Assembly: GCF_004010195.1 (NCBI RefSeq)
Contig: NC_057718.1
Coordinates: 7,692,785-7,725,703 of the forward strand
Reading direction: 5' to 3'
DNA: 32,919 nt
From: Chiloscyllium plagiosum
Lineage: Eukaryota
Part shown: in pieces, positions 2,889 to 29,205 of the stretch
How positions within the stretch are numbered: position 1 is the first letter of the stretch
How the letters are laid out: each line of letters starts with the position of its first letter
Made by a program: the position numbers and the translations under genes
Notes under the pieces: model-generated
What the model saw: the letters and a program-made list of their open reading frames with translations, nothing else
Databases searched by the model: none
Told to the model about the DNA's origin: nothing

Positions 2889-3090
2889 AAAAGGAGTGGC
2901 GTTGGAAAAGCACAGCTGGTCAGGCAGCATCCGAGGTGCAGGAGAGTCGACGTTTTGAGCATAAGCTCTTCAGCCGGATGTCTCAAAACGTCGACTCTCC
3001 TGCACCTCAGATGCTGCCTGACCAGCTGTGCTTTTCCAGCACCACACCTTTTGACTCTGATCTCCAGCGCCTGCAGCCCTCACTTTCTTT
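2889..3090. mobile_element. Penelope-like inverted-repeat insertion, family A, with 14-bp TSD
   Basis: Arms ~2886-2959 and 2982-3055 are near-perfect inverted repeats. TCATAAATTTGGTC is duplicated at 2875-2888 and 3091-3104. The hammerhead core is decayed. Confidence 0.75.
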
Positions 3091-4447: not shown

Positions 4448-4915
4448 AGACAGCCTAGTGGTGTGATGGCTGGTCTGCTAATCCTGAGATGAGAGTGTGT
4501 TGCTGGAAAAGCACAGCAGGTCAGGCAGCATCCGAAGAGCAGGAAGATCGATGTTTTGGGCCGAAGCCCTTCATCGGGAGTGAATCTAGTGTTAATCCAG
4601 AGACCCGAGTAATGGGAATGCAGGTTCGAATCCTGCCCGTGGCAGAGGGTGGAATTTGAATTCAATAAAAATATGCAATTAAGAGTCTCAATGATGACCA
4701 TGAATCCATTGTCAATTGTTGGGGGAAAGATCCATCTGGTTTACTAATGCCCTTTAGGGAAGAAATCTGCCATCCTTTCCTGGTCTGGTCTACATGTGAC
4801 TCCAGATCCACAGCAATGTGGTTGACTCTTTACTGCCCTCTGGGCAAATAGGGATGGACAATAAATGATGGGCCTGGCCAGTGATGCCCTCATCCTGTGA
4901 ATGAATAAAAAGAAA
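4448..4915 (+). mobile_element. tRNA-derived SINE sharing its 3' tail with the 6637-7740 LINE (interrupted at 4488-4580)
   Basis: B-box ggttcgaatcc, body ggaatttgaattcaataaaa..acatgtgactccaga, tail gggcaaatagggatgg..gaatgaataaaaa; further copies at 9195-10432 and 21927-22562. Confidence 0.75.
4488..4580 (-). mobile_element. Penelope-like family A terminus fragment inserted in a SINE head
   Basis: tgttgctggaaaagcacagcaggtcaggcagcatcc..gggccgaagcccttcatcgg, as in 5206-5341; decayed core. Confidence 0.65.
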
Positions 4916-5298
4916 ATTTTGCCTCGAGTTTTTCACTCAATTCAGCTAACAGCTCCTTCTCCCACCAGAGATCCTCATTCACCTTATCAAAGCCTTTCAC
5001 ATGTGTACTTCCTGTTAGCCTTCCATGTATGAAGGTGACAATTCCCAACTTGTGCAGGCCCTCCACCTAGCAACCATCTCTCATCCCAACTCGGACTCTA
5101 TTCATACTCTCTCAAAGGCATTCTTAAATTTGTTTCTCTGGGACATGGGCATTGCTGGCTTTACTGACCATCTCTATTTGCCCAGAGGGCAGTTAAAAAT
5201 CAAGCGGAGAAAGTGAGGTCTGCAGACGCTGGAGATCAAAGCTGAAACTTTATTGCTGGAACAGCACAGCAGGTCAGGCAGCATCTAGGGAACAGAAG

Positions 5299-5334
5299 AT
5301 TCGACGTTTCGGGCACATGCCCTTCTTCAGGAAT
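5299..5334 (-). ncRNA. minimal type-I hammerhead ribozyme motif (mirror copy)
   Basis: Exact reverse complement of 5354-5389. Confidence 0.72.
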
Positions 5335-5353
5335 GAGCAGACACTCTCTGCTC

Positions 5354-5389
5354 ATTCCTGAAGAAGGGCATGTGCCCGAAACGTCGAAT
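5354..5389 (+). ncRNA. minimal type-I hammerhead ribozyme motif (intact core)
   Basis: ATTC-CTGAAGA-A-GGGC atgt GCCC-GAA-ACGT-C-GAAT: helix I ATTC/GAAT, helix II GGGC/GCCC, palindromic helix III ACGT, cleavage triplet GUC ending at 5385. Confidence 0.75.
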
Positions 5390-5544
5390 CTTCTGTTCCC
5401 TAGATGCTGCCTGACCTGCTGTGCTGTTCCAGCAATAAAGTTTCAGCTAAAAATCAAGCACATTGCTCTGGATCTGGAGTCACGTGCAGGGCAGCAGATT
5501 TCCTTCCCTATAGGCCATTAGTGAAACAGATGTTTCCAACAGTA

Positions 5545-5933: not shown

Positions 5934-6058
5934 GAGAAAGTGAGGTCTGCAGATGCTGGAGATCAGAGCTGAAAATGTGTTGCTGGAAAAGCGCAGGTCA
6001 GGCAGCATCCAGGGAACAGGAGAATCGATGTTTCGGGCATAAGCCCTTCTTCAGGAAA
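5934..6058 (-). mobile_element. Penelope-like family A terminus with near-intact hammerhead core
   Basis: Colinear with 5207-5334; minus strand CTGAAGA-A-GGGC ttat GCCC-GAAACATC. Confidence 0.7.
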
Positions 6059-11838: not shown

Positions 11839-11846
11839 GTTAGGTC

Positions 11847-11932
11847 ATTCCTGATAAAGGACTTATGCACAAAACATCAATTCTCCTGCTCCTCGAATGC
11901 TACCTGACCTGCTGTGCTTTCCCAACAACATC
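11847..11932 (+). mobile_element. decayed Penelope-like family A fragment
   Basis: attcctgataaaggacttatgcacaaaacatcaattctcctgctcc..cctgacctgctgtgc. Confidence 0.55.
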
Positions 11933-13372: not shown

Positions 13373-13530
13373 GGAGAAAGTGAGGACTGCAGATGCTGGA
13401 GATCAGAGCTGAAAATGTGTTGCTGGAAAAGAGCAGCAGGTCAGGCAGCATCCAAGGAGGAGGAGAATCGACGTTTCGGGCAGGAGCCCTTCTTCAGGAA
13501 TTCCTGTGCTTTTCTAGCAACCACACTCTT
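13373..13530 (-). mobile_element. Penelope-like family A terminus with truncated inverted arm
   Basis: Colinear with 5206-5334, followed by a short inverted piece (ctgtgcttttctagcaaccacactct). Confidence 0.7.
13466..13501 (-). ncRNA. minimal hammerhead motif (intact core) in a family A terminus
   Basis: Minus strand reads ATTC-CTGAAGA-A-GGGC tcct GCCC-GAA-ACGT-C-GATT; helix I has one mismatch. Confidence 0.65.
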
Positions 13531-13950: not shown

Positions 13951-14185
13951 GGGAGAAACAGCCTTGATTTTCATGCTGCTCAGTCCTGAGGTCTCTGGGT
14001 TGTAACTTGGAGGTTAATGTGTTACCCACTGAGCGACAGCAAAGGGAAATGTAGCCATCTGGGTTTTACACCTGGGATTGTTGGGGGTGGTACTGTCGCA
14101 ATGAATGATTTGTACCAGCATCATCTCCTTCAATACCACATTCATGTTCCACAGCTTTTCCTGGGGGTCTAATCATGAATTAATT

Positions 14186-14550
14186 TAGGATATCTGGTCT
14201 GCATGAAGGAGTTGGACCGAAGGGTCTGTTTCCATGCTGTACATGTCAATGACTCTAGTCATCTGTTCCTCTGAGCTTGCTAGTGCTCTGCCATTCATTG
14301 AGAACGCCCTTGTCTTGTTATTTCTTCCAAAGTGCATCACCTCACAGTTTTCAGGGTTAAATTCCGTGTGCCACTCATCTGCCCATCTGATCAATCCGTT
14401 TAGATCATCATGTAACCTAACACCCTCTTCCTCACTACCAACCTCCCAGCCAATCCCTGTATTATGCACAAACATACTTACCATCCCTCCCACGTTCTCA
14501 TTGTCATCATTTATGTATGTCACAAATATTAAGAGATCCCATAGTGATCT
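14186..14550. mobile_element. CR1 tail (+, 14186-14256) abutting a CR1 RT fragment (-, ~14258-14550)
   Basis: Minus strand YINDDNENVGGMVSMFVHNT..DLNGLIRWADEWHTEFNPENCEVMHFGRNN is a decayed FADD region. Confidence 0.8.
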
Positions 14551-14848
14551 CTGCAGTGGATTAACGGAGTGATCTAATTGAGCTGTTTAAAGCAATTACA
14601 GGATTGGACTGAGGAAATGGAGAGACTCTTTGTCCTCAAATGCTGAAGGTCTGAACCATGTGTTCATTTCTTCACTCAAAATATTGTTTCGAACTCCCTC
14701 TCAGCAAAAGCTGCTGAGCCTGTGTCCCCGGGGTTTGGGGGGCGTGGCGATCAATTAACAATTTCAACACTCAGGTTCATAGACTTTGCCGTGCAAGGGT
14801 TTTCATGTTGAGGGATCCAAGATGGAGAAGTTGGGGGCTGAAGATGTT

Positions 14849-14943
14849 AGAGATCAGAGTTGAAGAGTGTGGCGCTGGAAAAGGTCAGGCAGCATCCGAG
14901 GAGCAGGAAAGTCGATGTTTTGGGCAAACGTTCATCAGGAATT
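14849..14943 (-). mobile_element. decayed Penelope-like family A fragment
   Basis: gagatcagagttgaagagtgtggcgctggaaaaggtcaggcagcatccgagg..ttcatcaggaat. Confidence 0.55.
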
Positions 14944-20495: not shown

Positions 20496-20570
20496 CTGAC
20501 CTGCTGTGCTGTTCCAGCAATAAAGTTTCAACTTTGATCTCCAGCATCTGCAGACCTCACTTTCTCCTCC
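20496..20570 (+). mobile_element. Penelope-like family A 3' fragment
   Basis: Nearly the exact reverse complement of 5206-5277. Confidence 0.65.
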
Positions 20571-23589: not shown

Positions 23590-24162
23590 GAAGCTGCTGT
23601 TAGAGACTCTGAAGGACATTGTAAATCTGGTGTAGGGGACAGAGCGAGTGGGTTACGGATTTACACCCCCCTTTCGAGAATCAGGTAGGCCTCAGTCCCA
23701 GAGGAATGTGAAGTGGAGACGGAGGCACGAGTAGGAGGGTGGCGGCACCTGACATCTTCTTGTGCCCATTGAGAAGGCGGGCTCCGTTACCATGGAGAGG
23801 ACCAAGCGACTGAGAGTGACCGCTTACCGTGGCCCTGCCGCACACACAGCGGGAAAGACGGCGTGACTCCCGTCCGGAGAAGGAGGTCACCTTTGGTCCA
23901 GGAGAAAGACTAAGAGAGCGGGGGAGGGGGCAGAAGCTTGGCGTCCTAGCGTGAGGGATTCAGTGAGTGACAAGCCCTCTCCAGTTTGATGCTCAGTGAC
24001 GACCTCTGGCGGTGAGTGACCTGAAGAGGCAGCAGTTGTTTGAGCCCCATGCCGGCAGCGATCAGCCGATGGCAGCACTGGGAGACCGAGCCGAGCTTTA
24101 GATGCAGTTGACGGTTGCCTCAGCAACGAAGCCCCGGCACTTAGCGACCGTCCTGACCGGAA
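23590..24162 (+). other. 5'UTR portion of the giant HIVEP exon
   Basis: Long polypyrimidine tract (~23540-23585) ending in tgtAG (23588-23589), followed by a switch to repeat-free GC/CpG-rich sequence. An in-frame stop at 24109-24111 precedes the ATG. Confidence 0.75.
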
Positions 24163-27100
24163 ATGGAGCCGAAACGCGCGATGCTGGGCGCGGCTGAGGA
24201 CAGCGGCGCCCCCGGCCCAGTCCAACGGGACACCCCCCGGTTACAGCCCAGCGTTTTCCCTGAGCCGGGGGCTCAGAGGCTGGCGCCGGACCCCCAGGGC
24301 CCAGTTGGTGGGACAGGGCCTTACTACCACTCTGAACTTCAGCTTCCCGCTGAGGCTCCTCGTCAGGCCCAGTCACGGCAACTCCTGGGCGGCCCCTACC
24401 ACCACCACCACCACCACCACTACGCACCCCGTCCCTTCCCACATTTCCAGCGCCGGCCTGACCCCCGGGGATACCCCACTCCGGAGGCAGGAGCTGGGGT
24501 GGAGGGGCGACCCTGGCCCTTCGGTCGCCCCCTGGAAGCCACACCTCCCGAGGCCTTCCTGCCCCTCCAGCACCGGTCCCGTCAGCTAGGCAAGGCCCCC
24601 AGCCCGGCCTGCTACCGCCACTACCCCCAGGCTGTGCCCGGACCCCGAGATGAGGCCCTGAGGAGGGACAAGAAGCCCAAGAAGCCGGGCAAACACATCT
24701 GCCAGTACTGTGGGCGAGCATGTGCCAAGCCCAGTGTCCTCAAGAAGCACATCCGTTCCCACACGGGCGAGAGACCCTATCCCTGCGCCCCCTGTGGTTT
24801 CTCCTTCAAGACCAAGAGCAACCTCTACAAGCACCGCAAGTCCCATGCCCACGCCATCAAGGCCGGTCTACTCTCCGCCGAGGCTGAGGCAGAGCCCAGC
24901 TGCCGCTCGGACACAGAGCCTCTGGGAGGGGGCGAGGAGGCCGGGCTGCACTCCGATGCCGACGAGAGCACAGACACAGACGAGGAGCTCTGCCCTGGCA
25001 AGAGGCTGTCCCAGCCGGAATCGCCGGAACCAGAGGTGGCCGAAGCTGGCAATCCCATCCTGCAACGTTCCCTGAGGGTGTCTCAGAAATACAGCTCGGA
25101 CTCTGAGGTGCTCAGTGAGGAGTCGCCTGCCGGGCCCATGAAGGTGCCCATTCTCATCGTCCCCAAGTGCGGCCTCCAGGCACAGGCTGAGGGCCCGCCA
25201 GCCTACGTCAAAACAGAAGCTTGCCCCAGCCCCCCTGTCATGGTCTGGAAGTACGGGGGGCCGCATACCATCAAGCAGAGGCTGGCCCTGCGGCTGAACG
25301 AGAAGCGAGGCCAGGACAGTGAGCAGTCCGTTAACTTGCTGAGCCCCCACAGCAAGGGCAGCACCGATTCGGGCTACTTCTCCCGATCGGAGAGTGCTGA
25401 GCAGCAGGTCAGTCCCCCCAACACCAACGCCAAGTCCTACGCCGAGATCATCTTCGGCAAGTTTGCTAGGCTGGCCCCCAGGCCCATGGCGGTCAACGTG
25501 GCATTGCAGGAGCCCCCTCCGATGGCCTGCAAGGACAAGGCCGGCTTGGTGGCAATCCCTGGAGACAAGCCTGACCTGGAGAAGTTCATCGAGGAGCACA
25601 TCTTGCAGCTCATAAGCCACAACAACGTCTTGGTGGACCCCAGTCAACTAGACCCTGTCAAGCCACGAAGGTTCACCTGTTACCGGGGAGATGGCGGTGA
25701 GTTGCGGAAGCATCCAATGGCGCTGGGGGAGGCAGTCAGCGAGGCCAGGGCCTTCTCTGAGGAGTCACTGGGCCCGAGTGCAATGGACTGCTTTGTGCCG
25801 TCAGAGAAGGAGCTCTTGGGTATCCCGCCAGACACGGCGGACAGTGCCACGTTAACCCGGAGCAACTCCATGCCCATATCCTCCGGGAATGGCCTGGGAG
25901 TCCCCCAGGTGCTGAGGGGGAGCCACTCCTTCGACGAGAGGATGACGGGCTCGGATGATGTGTTCCACGCCGGCTCTGCCCTGCTGCCGCACCAGCGCAT
26001 GCTGAAACGCCAGACGGCCATCGAGCTGTTCTCTGGTCTCGAGGGCCACGCCCCGGGGAGTTGCGGGCACGACGACGGGGAGCAAGGGCCTGGGACCTTC
26101 CCCAGGGGATCTCCAGCCGCCACGGGAGCCACCAAGACAGAAGAAGGGGAGTTGGCCGAGGGAGGTGACCCATCGCTGCTGGTGATGAAAGCCCAGAAGG
26201 GAGTGGGCACGGTGTACGAGTGCGAAATCTGCGGCGTCAAGTACCAGATTTGGGACAACTTTGAGGCCCACAGGAAGTTCTACTGCTCGCACGGGCCGCG
26301 TGCCAAGTGTGGAGCGCCCAAACCCCTTGGCGAGGGTGGGCTGGAGTTATCTCAGACCACGGTCTACAAGGCTGGCCCGGTGCTGGAAAACTTACCATTC
26401 AGGAAACGAAGGAAAGAAAAGAGTGTTGGGGATGAGGAGGACATCCCCGGTCGCTATGGAGGCCCGTACGGAGGCCTGACCTGGTCACCCCCCTCAGGGG
26501 CTGAGCCCAAAGCTGAGGGGAATCCCCTCACCGATCAGGAACCAGTCCCCAGAACTGTCTCCGTGTCGACCATGACCACCTCAGGTTTCTTCGGCCTGCC
26601 AAGGGAGCCGGTCGCCGTGGCAACGGCAGAGGAGAGCGAGCCGCAGGCAATGGAGGATTCGCCAGGGGGGCAGGGCCTGGGCAAGCAGGATGGAGGCCGG
26701 AGGGGGACAGGCAACGAGATCTCCGTCATCCAGCACACCAACTCGCTGAGCTGGCCAGGCTCCTTCGAGCGGTCTGAGTCCATGGAGCTGCTTTCCGGTC
26801 CTGGGGGGCCCGACCCCTCCCCCGAGGTGGGGATGGGGGTGGGTCAGCACCCGCCAGCTGAGGTGGGAGAGCTCCAGGCCGGCCCACAGCCCCAGCCGAC
26901 GCCCAAGCTGGTGCGCCAACACAATATCCAGGTGCCGGAGATCCGGGTGACAGAGGAACCGGACAAACCGGAGAAGGAGCCGGACGAGGCCCCCGTCAAG
27001 GAGGCCGAGAAGGTGCCCGAGGAGTTCCAGTGGCCGCAGCGGAGCGAAACGCTGTCCCAGCTGCCCGCCGAGAAACTACCACCCAAGAAGAAGAGGCTGC

Positions 27101-29103
27101 GCCTCGCCGAGCTGCAGTACTCATCCGGGGAGTCGAGCCTGGAGTCCGGTACGCTGTCCCGGAGTCTGAGCCAGGACAGCAACTGGTCGCACAGCTCCAG
27201 CTTCTCACTCTCGCTGGAGAGAGACGAGGGCCCGAAGCCTGGGACCTCGGGCAGGCCGGAGACGGCCGAGTATCTGACGGTGCCCTACGTGGTCAACAGC
27301 CCGGGCCTATTGGGCCAACAGCAGCAGCAGGAGCAGCAGCAGCAGAAGGAGATGAGGCGTTCGGCTTCAGAGCAGGCCCCGTGCCAGCCCTATCTGGAGA
27401 TGGTGGAGACCCGCAGCAAGTCCTTCGACTATGGCAACCTGTCGGGAGGCCCTGGGGGGGCTGGGCCCCGCTGTGGGCCTGCTCCCGCCTCCTCCCCCGC
27501 TGTCAGGGAGAGGAGACGGTGCTTCCTGGTGCGCCAGGCTTCCCTCGGACAGTACTCAGAGAATTCCCAGCCGGAGCACGGGCTGGAGCTGGGCGAGCCG
27601 ATGCAGGTCTCCGGTCACCAGGCGTGCGGGCCCGCCCTCCCGACCCGGGGACCTCGACACCGCCCGGCCTCACCCACCGACCGTCCCTGTGACGCCCCTT
27701 ACCCTCCCCTCGACTTCCACCAGCCCTGGCAGCTCTACCAGCCGCCCCCGCCCTTCCCTGCCCCCGGCTCCGAGCCCTATCCCCCCACCGCGCAGTGGCC
27801 AGCGGTTCCCCTGCAGCTCCCGTGCCCCTCTCTCCCCCCCGGCGAGGCCTACCCCGGTCAGCCAGTGGAGAGGCGCCCTCAGGCCCGGCCGGGCTGGGGG
27901 GACAAGGAGCAGCCTTGCCCCTCGCCCCGGGCCTCCCCTCAGCACTCCCCCGGACGCCGGGCCCACGCCCCCACCCCACGCTCCAGCCGCACCCCTCCCT
28001 CCCTGCTGGTGCCCGTCAGGATTCAGGCCAACATGCCCATCTACGGCAGTGTCATGTACACCAGCGTCTCCCACGCTTCAGGAGGCACCCGCGGGCCGCT
28101 CAGCCACAGCCCTGGCCTGGTCATCTGCAAGGTGGAGGGCCGTTCGCCCGCCCAGGAGCCGGGTGGGGTAGGAGGAGCGCAGTGCGCCCCCTGGGGGCTG
28201 CCCACACCCTCGGCGACAGCAACAGCGGCGGGCACGGCCGGAGAAGTGTCGGTGCCCCTCACCGTGGGCCTGGTGAGCTCGGACGGGGGAACATCCATCG
28301 GGGGCAGCAAGCGCATGCTCTCCCCCGCCAGCAGCCTGGAGCTCTCCGTGGAGACCCAGCAGCAGAAGCGGGTCAAGGAGGAGAAGATCTGCGGGCAGAT
28401 GCTGGAGAAGCTCAGCCTGCGGGAGTCCGGCACCCCCAGCACGCCTGCCAATGCCAAGGCGGCCAAGCCGCAGCTGGTGCGCCAGTTCTGCACCACCGGT
28501 GAGGCGAGGGAAGGCCAACCGTCACCCTCTGGCTCCTCCCCGCGATGGCACGGCCCTCAGAGCCTGGAGTCCGCCCCCTCCGAGGAGCGCCTGTCGCTTG
28601 GCCAATGCAGCGACATGGAGTCCCTGGAGAGCCTTGAGGTGGAGAGTCCGCAGAGAGGGCCGCCATCGCCTGGCGACCTCCCCTCGGAGCCCCCGCCCCT
28701 GCTGCCCCCTCAGCACAAGTTCCCCATCAGCATGCTCCTCCAGGTGCCCGTCAGCCAGGGGGGCACGGTGGTGGGTGGCACCGTGCTCCTCTCGGACGTG
28801 TCTGACCTCCAGCAGTTCCTGCAGTTCCCCAGCCTCCGCACCTCCACCAGCGTCAGCTGGTGCTTCCTGAACTACACCAAACCCAACCCGACCCGGCACA
28901 TGGCCCCCAAGCTCTCCATGTACGCCACCTGGTGCATCAGCTCGTACAACCCCAACCCCCCGGGCACTGCCACGAAGGTGGCCCTGGCCCTCCTCAGGTC
29001 CAAGCAGAAGGCAGCCAAAGAGATCTACATCATGTCTGCTCTGAACTGGCCCAGTTCGGGAAAGCTGGTGGCCTCCAGCGGCTGGAAGCAGAGAATAGCC
29101 CAG
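24163..29103 (+). CDS. HIVEP3: HIVEP/Schnurri (ZAS family) zinc-finger transcription factor, coding part of the giant first coding exon (1647 codons, phase-0 end)
   Basis: The ORF contains the ZAS-N C2H2 pair (ICQYCGRACAKPSVLKKHIRSHTGERPYPCAPCGFSFKTKSNLYKHRKSHAH), SKGSTDSGYFSRSESAEQQVSPPNTNAKSYAEIIFGK, a lone CCHC finger, EEFQWPQRSETLSQLPAEKLPPKKKRLRL and FPSLRTSTSVSWCFLNYTKPNP. The ATG is in good context (ggaaATGg). The donor CAG|GTGAGG at 29103/29104 means the ORF-track tail to 29145 is intron read-through. The family call is firm; the paralog choice (3 vs 2) is only about 0.6. Confidence 0.95.
24400..24420 (+). repeat. coding (CAC)7 microsatellite, poly-His
   Basis: tac (cac)7 tac in frame. 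Confidence 0.95.
24694..24852 (+). other. ZAS-N tandem C2H2 zinc-finger pair (kappaB-motif binding in HIVEP proteins)
   Basis: CQYC..HIRSH-TGERPY-PCAPC..HRKSHAH with the canonical TGERPY linker. Confidence 0.95.
26215..26286 (+). other. isolated CCHC (HIVEP-type) zinc finger
   Basis: YECEICGVKYQIWDNFEAHRKFYC: C-x2-C-x12-H-x4-C. Confidence 0.85.
27316..27345 (+). repeat. coding CAG repeat, QQQQQEQQQQ
   Basis: caa (cag)4 gag (cag)4 in frame. Confidence 0.95.
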
Positions 29104-29205
29104 GTGAGGATCGGCCAGATGTGGATCACCTTGACAGCGTTGTAGGGCTGTTTCAAATCAGTTAGAACCAAGCTAATCAGAGAGACCAGACTAATTGGGA
29201 AGTCG

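Follow-up and report, generated by a model that had tools for sequence, protein, structure and literature searches.

A 32,919-nucleotide stretch of the genome of the shark Chiloscyllium plagiosum (assembly GCF_004010195.1, contig NC_057718.1, positions 7,692,785 to 7,725,703 of the forward strand; hereafter the window) carries a short palindromic insertion 18.7 kb upstream of the start codon of HIVEP2a. A repeat search of the window showed that positions 5240-5341 and 5347-5448 form an inverted repeat, with 102-nt arms that are complementary at 102/102 positions (100%) and separated by 5 nt (CACTC, 5342-5346). The insertion is flanked on both sides by an exact 12-nt direct repeat, TAAAAATCAAGC, at 5194-5205 and 5448-5459, which is contained in a longer direct repeat (5190-5205 and 5444-5459). 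Since the right arm ends with T5448 and the duplication starts with that same base, the insert itself runs from 5206 to 5447 (242 nt), and insert plus one duplication amount to 254 nt. Apart from this small correction of its limits, the perfect 102-bp inverted repeat, 5-nt loop and 12-bp duplication described in a first-pass annotation of the window were confirmed. As set out below, the feature very probably arose in one recent retrotransposition event from a very abundant family of endonuclease-encoding Penelope-like elements (PLEs) in this shark genome. Its 242 bp consist of two 5'-truncated copies of the PLE 3' end joined head to head. The parts of the insertion and its surroundings are as follows:

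4800..4865, minus strand: uninterrupted inverted paralogue of the host repeat, an empty site within the window (repeat pairs I2 and I3).
5194..5205, no strand: left copy of the 12-bp target-site duplication TAAAAATCAAGC, a direct repeat present as a single copy in a contig of sequencing run X7.
5206..5239, minus strand: 34-nt PLE tail, reading TTGATCTCCAGCGTCTGCAGACCTCACTTTCTCC on this strand, a 3' extension of the left arm only; the tail recurs at 32 of 57 sampled 3' ends.
5240..5341, minus strand: left arm of the inverted repeat, a 5'-truncated copy of the element 3' end that begins 11 nt upstream of the hammerhead core.
5299..5334, minus strand: putative minimal type-I hammerhead motif by consensus reading, helix I AUUC/GAAU, core 5303-5330.
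5342..5346, plus strand: loop CACTC, templated, being the next 5 nt upstream in the right-hand (+) copy (compare the loop CACTCTCTGCTCAT at family locus L006 and ...GAACACTCTCTGCTCATTCC at L035).
5347..5447, plus strand: right arm, a 5'-truncated copy with the same 3' end and the tail-less terminus ...AATAAAGTTTCAGC, a type found at 25 of 57 sampled ends.
5354..5389, plus strand: putative minimal type-I hammerhead motif, core 5358-5385, predicted cut 3' of C5385, no Rfam hammerhead match.
5448..5459, no strand: right copy of the 12-bp target-site duplication, a direct repeat.

The ends of the insertion are asymmetric, as the left arm is preceded by 34 extra nucleotides (5206-5239) that have no counterpart on the right arm. 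Poly(A) is absent: the two ends read ...CTTTCTCC and ...GTTTCAGC, without an A run. Comparison of the flanks with the remainder of the window revealed that the left flank (5160-5203) and 4822-4865 are inverted copies of each other (86% identity, pair I2), as are the right flank (5444-5479) and 4800-4835 (83%, pair I3). Because both flanks are thus inverted copies of one uninterrupted stretch, 4800-4865, the insertion is demonstrated within the window itself and this stretch represents a paralogous empty site. The host repeat that was hit comprises one copy at 5160-5205 plus 5460-5479 and an inverted partner about 300 nt upstream, at 4800-4865. Folded as RNA, 5190-5470 has a predicted energy of -228.2 kcal/mol (z = -26.95), and 0 of 200 shuffled sequences fold as well.

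An empty allele of the same site was found among public sequencing runs. Run X7, possibly an RNA data set, carries the same species label and comes from another study; one of its contigs, 238 nt long, matches 5023-5194 exactly, continues with four letters and then covers 5453-5513 with one difference. This contig omits exactly 254 nt and keeps one copy of the duplication, and hence represents the empty allele; the insertion is probably polymorphic and still segregating. Elsewhere in the genome there are copies that are 100% identical over 136 and 108 nt. Together with the 102/102 match of the arms and the empty site in X7, these copies bear out the proposal of the first-pass annotation that the insertion is coding-free and very young. 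In two further runs, X1 and X2, the contigs that cover the unique left flank extend only to 5197, within the duplication and short of the junction, while a contig of run X5 reaches 5205; a right-side contig of X1 begins at 5444 with 11 unaligned letters. The ends of the X1 and X2 contigs could reflect heterozygosity for the insertion.

To place the insertion in its family, we searched the 3.56-Gb genome. The 242-nt insert had at least 84 matches (40 of 43 first-look candidates scored), and an exact 28-mer spanning the 5' side of the hammerhead core occurred 5,506 times genome-wide. Summed contig depth over the insert exceeded that of the flanks by four to five orders of magnitude in four public runs, a figure that should not be read as copy number. 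The window contains another eight pieces of this PLE repeat or of related ones, which are 69-97% identical to the insert. Fragments lie at 2903-3088, 4487-4583, 5934-6057, 11845-11928, 13373-13501, 14824-14942 and 20496-20567. Among them, older variants of the hammerhead occur at 6027-6054 (-) and 13470-13497 (-), and 20496-20567 (+) is a tailed 3' end of 72 nt.

The longer copies of the family connect this terminus to a coding element. At three loci (L009, L010 and L035) one long arm contains about 300 nt of non-coding sequence upstream of the hammerhead, preceded by an open frame with ...IIYCIRCSRCGLFYIGETGRLLAERFREH... The frame at L010:299-700 matches the Pfam GIY-YIG family (PF01541) with 22.8 bits (E 1.1e-4); about 300 nt separate it from the same hammerhead and tail downstream. 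When the corresponding 134-amino-acid endonuclease piece was compared with the genome, all 150 scored matches (the best 150 of 146,797 first-look candidates) were 92-100% identical. A genome search with the Pfam GIY-YIG model itself returned one weak match, on another contig, among the 150 of 14,403 candidates that were scored, and the open reading frame at 14185-14586 (-) of the window belonged to no Pfam family. Relatives of the 134-amino-acid piece were found in four uncharacterised proteins from two sharks and a skate. Three of these four contain the reverse transcriptase (RT) domain RVT_1 directly before the GIY-YIG-like stretch (P0004, 69.1 bits; P0003, 22.7 bits; P0002, 16.4 bits), and P0003 also scores 23.2 bits for GIY-YIG. 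Long apparent open frames of 1042 and 1137 amino acids in the genome's own long copies were discarded as candidate RT regions, as they consist of runs of N. The Penelope-like origin suggested by the first-pass annotation is therefore upheld, given that the terminus runs upstream into a GIY-YIG open reading frame in longer copies, and that the tail, the inverted truncated copy and the variable duplications match published PLEs.

Both arms carry a sequence that corresponds to the minimal hammerheads of PLEs. Each arm reads AUUC-CUGAAGA-A-GGGC(AUGU)GCCC-GAA-ACGU-C-GAAU, with perfect matches to the core CTGAAGA-N13-GAAACGTC at 5358-5385 (+) and 5303-5330 (-). Allowing up to two mismatches, the window contains five such sites where 0.17 would be expected; none of 100 shuffles had as many. 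With the hammerhead numbering and trait list taken from PMC4209133, the conserved core is complete on both strands: CUGAAGA (C3-U4-G5-A6-N7-G8-A9), G12-A13-A14, A15.1-U16.1 and a non-G at position 17 (C). Further traits of minimal hammerheads are likewise present, namely the extra A after position 9, the G10.1-C11.1 pair and a palindromic 15.2-16.2 (ACGU) without loop 3. The full minimal core with a loopless, palindromic helix III that had been noted in each arm thus agrees with the published PLE traits. Since the ACGU is contiguous, a monomer would be unable to close helix III. Accordingly, the earlier idea that the insertion offers a ribozyme on either strand holds in so far as there is one core per strand, but only one sense core is available per transcript, and as a monomer it cannot form helix III. 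The sequence is assigned as a hammerhead because of its agreement with the published consensus and its context, and cleavage is a prediction. The hammerheads at the insertion, one sense core per strand, are likely to be passengers; the insertion encodes nothing, would have been dead on arrival, and probably contributes nothing functional to the locus.

We next compared hairpins of this kind across the genome, using loci that had been retrieved with the hairpin itself as the query. At 14 loci including the window, the arms were identical at 102/102, 102/102, 108/108, 105/105, 92/93, 106/107, 62/62, 92/92, 89/91, 90/90, 119/121, 86/87, 99/102 and 74/81 positions. Loops ranged from 0 to 48 nt, and the turnaround points varied. 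Every hairpin locus with readable flanks had its own duplication of 12-15 bp: 12 bp at the window, and 12-15 bp at L002, L005-L007, L009, L010, L035, L036, L038 and L039. Terminal inverted repeats, a target duplication and high copy number are also what a foldback-type DNA transposon or miniature inverted-repeat transposable element would display, with the hammerhead-like words arising by chance. We consider such an origin very improbable, as the duplications are not of fixed length, the 34-nt tail makes the ends asymmetric, the arms correspond to an element 3' end that has a GIY-YIG reading frame upstream of it, the turnaround points differ, and many pairs have one arm that is hundreds of nucleotides longer than the other.

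The Penelope-like family shows a consistent pattern in its termini. In readable hairpins one arm stops at ...AATAAAGTTTCA(A/G)C, and the other extends for 34 nt more to ...CACTTTCTCC. The 57 sampled 3' ends of the element fall into two classes 34 nt apart, 32 tailed and 25 tail-less, and all flanks differ. Five of the tailed flanks start with a similar TCG(A/T)A, and two of them (L041 and L044) continue into common sequence. In all four runs, loose contig ends with diverse flanks accumulate at 5206 and 5445 of the window; these pile-ups mark the same two termini of the family. Tailed and tail-less ends were combined in 11 of the 12 determinable hairpins retrieved with the hairpin query, and in all eight pairs found otherwise (L009, L010, L021, L033, L035, L049, L055 and L057), such that 19 of 20 determinable pairs had one end of each type. 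Free choice between ends at a ratio of 32:25 would give about 49% mixed pairs, and eight of eight would then occur by chance with a probability of about 0.003. On one contig, the first 100 exact matches included 26 neighbouring pairs in -/+ order no more than 5 kb apart, 6 pairs on the same strand and none in +/- order; the head-to-head arrangement is the rule in this PLE family. Two variants of hammerhead loop II are common, yet the variant was identical on both arms at 7/7 loci. The longer arm was the tail-less one in seven pairs and the tailed one in six, with three pairs equal or undetermined.

Three further observations concern the arrangement of copies. Firstly, among 68 cores, the copy begins exactly 17 nt before the core at 12 loci and exactly 11 nt before it at 6; these include the window (5341/5347) and loci L002, L004-L009, L040, L041, L043 and L044. 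A fixed 5' end of the RNA, possibly a transcription start, 17 nt upstream of the core was considered and rejected as a general end, the sample being biased by the query: of the 5,506 exact matches, 5,094 continue upstream, so at most 7.5% stop at the 17-nt end, which is a minor class at most. The recurrent 5' ends may represent a pause or jump site or sampling bias. Secondly, on contig C1 seven head-to-head pairs (L046, L050-L054 and L058) share the flank TTTGATATCCAAATGAATCC... after one arm, where it replaces the normal tail, and their opposite end has a variable flank. Hairpin loops on C1 recur in nine of the sampled loci (131 nt in five, 71 nt in two and 36 nt in two), and in two of the hairpins with the 131-nt loop the shared flank is absent or masked. 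Either the shared flank belongs to a composite element that carries a hairpin and is being copied whole, or it is the body of a long, inverted member of a related subfamily. Thirdly, L041 (397-739) and L044 each contain two same-strand repeat copies about 200-240 nt apart, the first of which continues past its tail into TCGAAGATTTCAACCTACTGC..., a shared stretch with an ATG. These two loci are direct, retrozyme-like or partial-tandem arrangements with two sense hammerheads.

From the anatomy, the family, the GIY-YIG link and the empty allele, all of which were observed directly, we infer the following order of events. One element RNA would be bound by the RT-endonuclease, and both strands of the target would be cut with a 12-bp stagger, giving rise to the duplication. 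Each target 3'-OH would then serve as primer for reverse transcription, which would begin at one of two neighbouring start sites within the RNA. Only the last 100-140 nt of the element, the pseudo-long-terminal-repeat (pseudo-LTR) part with the minimal hammerhead and AATAAA, would be copied. This stretch would be copied twice, head to head, with one copy beginning at the 3'-most start site and carrying the 34-nt tail, and the other beginning 34 nt further in and lacking it. The two cDNAs would stop at nearby points, and joining of their 3' ends by template jump or repair would generate the perfect palindrome. Its loop would equal the difference in length between the two cDNAs, which for CACTC in the window means that the plus-strand copy continued. 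Given a Penelope-like origin, we consider priming from two start sites about as probable as all other routes combined. The combination of one-of-each ends, matched variants, either arm being the longer and the head-to-head rule is most simply explained if one RNA is used and both start sites are used once. We therefore propose, tentatively and at slightly less than even confidence, that the rule of one tailed and one tail-less end (19/20), the single template variant (7/7) and the longer arm of either type (7 versus 6) might be the in vivo footprint of a concerted reaction, in which an RT-endonuclease dimer on a single RNA would use the two start sites once each and prime from the two cut strands.

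Several results weigh against this account or against parts of it. With respect to the coding element, the GIY-YIG score of 22.8 bits is barely above the cut-off of 22.6, and the interior of the genome's own long copies is N, such that the RT domain could not be read in them. The link to RT appears to run through the proteins of relatives. Thus, of the connection to GIY-YIG- and RT-encoding elements on which the first-pass annotation had made its proposal depend, the GIY-YIG part was found in the genome itself, but the RT part only by way of these proteins. With respect to the locus, no listed contig of the four runs bridges 5205/5206 or 5447/5448. Contigs break at the repeat, hence the filled junctions are not bridged, and the filled allele rests on the genome assembly and on the pattern of the family. 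These missing bridges, together with the one contig that displays the empty site and the error-prone assembly of palindromes that is noted for PLEs in the excerpted text of PMC8557442, could indicate a fold-back artefact of the assembly at this locus. However, neither the 12-bp duplication nor the tail on a single arm nor ends that coincide with the two family termini would be generated by an artefact, and the same design recurs at many loci, each with its own duplication; we regard this explanation as highly unlikely.

The same applies to the ribozyme. Rfam contains the hammerhead families Hammerhead_1, Hammerhead_3, Hammerhead_II, HH9 and HH10. At the gathering score there were 0 hammerhead matches over the whole window, and at E <= 10 the 15 matches obtained for 5150-5500 included no hammerhead family, so that the Rfam search proposed earlier as a check came back negative. 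All 15 lie far under threshold, and they comprise 14 microRNA (miRNA) precursor models and one long non-coding RNA model. It follows that the minimal PLE hammerhead escapes the Rfam models and that ribozyme motifs of this type are under-annotated. In 31 distinct copies (window and sampled loci), 89.1% of the cells in helices I and II were paired, a level equalled by 139 of 500 column shuffles, and only two double changes were seen, a number reached by 76 of 500 shuffles. Covariation, being neither above shuffles nor clearly above slid controls, was dropped as support for the hammerhead. Folding of 43-54-nt segments as monomers was no better than that of shuffles (z about 0), and in a nearest-neighbour model the double hammerhead reached -15.7 kcal/mol compared with -27.6 kcal/mol for the best dimer, the hammerhead fold thus not being favoured. 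Thermodynamic support for a hammerhead or double hammerhead was accordingly abandoned, as the folding models gave none. The negative folding predictions nevertheless agree with the low in vitro activity of such minimal PLE motifs in the excerpted text of Cervera and de la Pena (PMC4209133), and with the protein-assisted hammerhead of the anole PLE (PMC11167929).

Three more points bear on the mechanism in particular. As the hairpin loci were retrieved with a hairpin, the set is biased towards look-alikes; L041 is an exception to the rule of mixed ends, with tails on both arms; and the published in vitro data show no strand preference for either RT start site, so they do not predict the one-of-each rule. 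An alternative route for the same element starts from a cDNA made at the tailed site, which would snap back and copy itself, with a tail-recognising endonuclease trimming one arm before it is joined to the target. Snap-back would account for the perfect arms and for the very short loops (0-14 nt) seen in 9 of 14 hairpins, and L041 would be an untrimmed product. In addition, the excerpted part of PMC8557442 attributes the tail to endonuclease-mediated resolution, and PMC11167929 quotes earlier work according to which the tail is needed for recognition by the endonuclease. The first-made, tailed arm would, however, have to be the longer one, yet the tail-less arm is longer in seven pairs, by hundreds of nucleotides in L009 and L010, and the tailed arm in six. 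Furthermore, the loop in the window continues the tail-less copy, and a tail-less cDNA that copies itself cannot yield a tail. Since snap-back cannot provide a tail-less start with a tailed partner and would always make the first arm longer, it is not general. Simple snap-back as the sole mechanism was rejected on the asymmetry of arm lengths, and the route with trimming, although we take it seriously, remains unlikely.

A second alternative is that the hairpin arose elsewhere: an existing master element, itself hairpin-shaped, would have been transcribed and retrotransposed as a unit to yield the copy in the window. L002 has the arm length (102) and the loop (CACTC) of the window, and the hairpins on C1 with identical loops (five of 131 nt, two of 71 nt and two of 36 nt) occur at different places, seven of them beside the shared flank, which indicates that some hairpins, or the long elements that adjoin them, are copied as units. 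The window and L002 nonetheless differ from each other at the same positions on both arms (AGC/AGT; loop II CATGT/CCTGT), each remaining internally perfect, as expected if each hairpin was made afresh from one template. Moreover, the tail-less end in the window lies exactly at the family terminus and is followed directly by the duplication, with no shared flank, and other hairpins turn around elsewhere. Copying from a master hairpin is therefore a distinctly improbable origin for the insertion in the window, and formation on site from the PLE RNA is preferred.

The neighbouring gene lies well downstream. A 1662-amino-acid open frame at 24157-29145 (+) is 99% identical (1647/1649 residues shown) to a 2321-amino-acid bamboo shark protein named HIVEP2a, whose first residue aligns to position 24163 of the window, with the gene on the plus strand. 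The large first coding exon of HIVEP2a spans 24044-29145; it is very GC-rich and has long overlapping frames on both strands, which are taken as an effect of composition. With the start codon 18.7 kb away, the insertion site is either in an intron of the 5' untranslated region or intergenic. The ideas that the insertion is a self-muzzled ribozyme in HIVEP pre-mRNA or a substrate for ADAR or Dicer are speculation built on a predicted fold. Its extreme predicted stability and the sub-threshold matches to miRNA precursors, such as MIR6136 at 64 bits, might point to a functional hairpin-RNA gene (a precursor of miRNA or endogenous small interfering RNA) or to a regulatory double-stranded RNA element of HIVEP2a. 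However, the miRNA scores (MIR6136, mir-4662 and others) are far under the gathering scores (64 versus 99, 52.5 versus 97 and 37.7 versus 63), and they are equal on both strands, as for any perfect hairpin, so these are generic hairpin matches. Given also that the insertion appears to be segregating and its distance from the start codon, we attach very little credence to such a function.

Taken together, the locus itself bears a neutral-looking, probably segregating insertion that is mainly useful as an insertion polymorphism. It is ordinary for its class, and its main value is that of one clean example from a family able to test PLE integration. As to how PLEs make their inverted repeats and tails, a single in vitro study exists, and it detected two neighbouring start sites together with cleavage of both strands. 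With its great abundance, apparent activity and hundreds of clean head-to-head insertions, the present family would allow the concerted use of two sites to be tested genomically. If the interpretation is correct, the perfect arms and the segregating insertion would mean that the family is currently active, providing a vertebrate system in which to catch intermediates of PLE integration. More practically, palindromes of this type can mimic miRNA hairpins in scans and break assemblies.

Finally, we compared the insertion with known systems. Its shape is the usual footprint of a PLE rather than a new kind of element, and it fits the known class point by point. Like endonuclease-positive PLEs (Penelope/Poseidon and Neptune type), it combines heavy 5' truncation, an inverted truncated copy arranged head to head, a tail at one end only (34 nt here), a hammerhead in the terminal repeat, GIY-YIG at the C-terminal end of a reading frame just upstream, no poly(A) and a duplication of variable length. 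In contrast to complete elements of that type, the window copy retains only about 100-140 nt per arm and no open reading frame. The RT part is unreadable in the copies of this genome, and the likeness is drawn at the level of PLEs as a whole. In twin priming by L1, both target strands also prime, so that a single insertion, bounded by a duplication, contains an internal inversion. There the joined segments come from two distinct neighbouring parts of the RNA and the insertion ends in poly(A), whereas the arms in the window represent the same part of the RNA, begin at two fixed points 34 nt apart and lack poly(A).

Published descriptions of PLEs agree with this picture. According to the excerpted text of Craig et al. 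(PMC8557442), PLE insertions are highly 5'-truncated, are frequently partial tandems, are frequently accompanied at the 5' end by an inverted 5'-truncated copy, possess a tail of 30-40 bp at one end only, and contain hammerheads in their pseudo-LTRs; the one-ended tail of 30-40 bp is also described in PMC11167929. The PLE protein of the anole cuts and extends both target strands (Frangieh et al., PMC11167929). In that system RT starts at two adjacent internal sites of the RNA, the spacing of which corresponds to the tail, the protein is predicted to dimerise, and cleavage by the hammerhead, which is protein-assisted, is not required for insertion in vitro. The anole reading frame differs in that it begins at hammerhead stem II, whereas the shark family has no reading frame starting in the hammerhead.

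The minimal hammerheads themselves reside in PLE repeats, some of them paired on opposite strands 100-700 bp apart, in the excerpts of Cervera and de la Pena 2014 (PMC4209133). The motifs in the window share with those excerpted descriptions the core CUGANGA...GAA...H17, G10.1-C11.1, the loopless ACGU and a short helix I (4 bp), and the family shares genome-wide copies that are mostly truncated and in some cases paired on opposite strands. They differ from the Schistosoma and Drosophila virilis examples given there in having a helix II of 4 bp rather than 6-8 bp, and the 31 sampled shark copies add no covariation support. Similarly, the insertion resembles the non-LTR retrozymes, in which tandem hammerhead repeats give rise to circular RNAs (PMC7229834, excerpted text), in being a short, non-coding derivative of a PLE repeat with a type-I hammerhead. 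Retrozymes are direct tandems with at least two sense ribozymes per transcript, unlike the copies in the window, which are inverted, so that each transcript has one sense and one antisense core. Same-strand tandem hammerheads, which define retrozymes, were accordingly not found at the insertion, the nearest same-strand core (6027-6054, -) belonging to a separate, older copy with 88% identity. In the excerpted text of a 2026 preprint, PLE repeats are given as the origin of animal retrozymes, with one cartilaginous fish among the species in which these were found (bioRxiv 10.64898/2026.07.22.740005).

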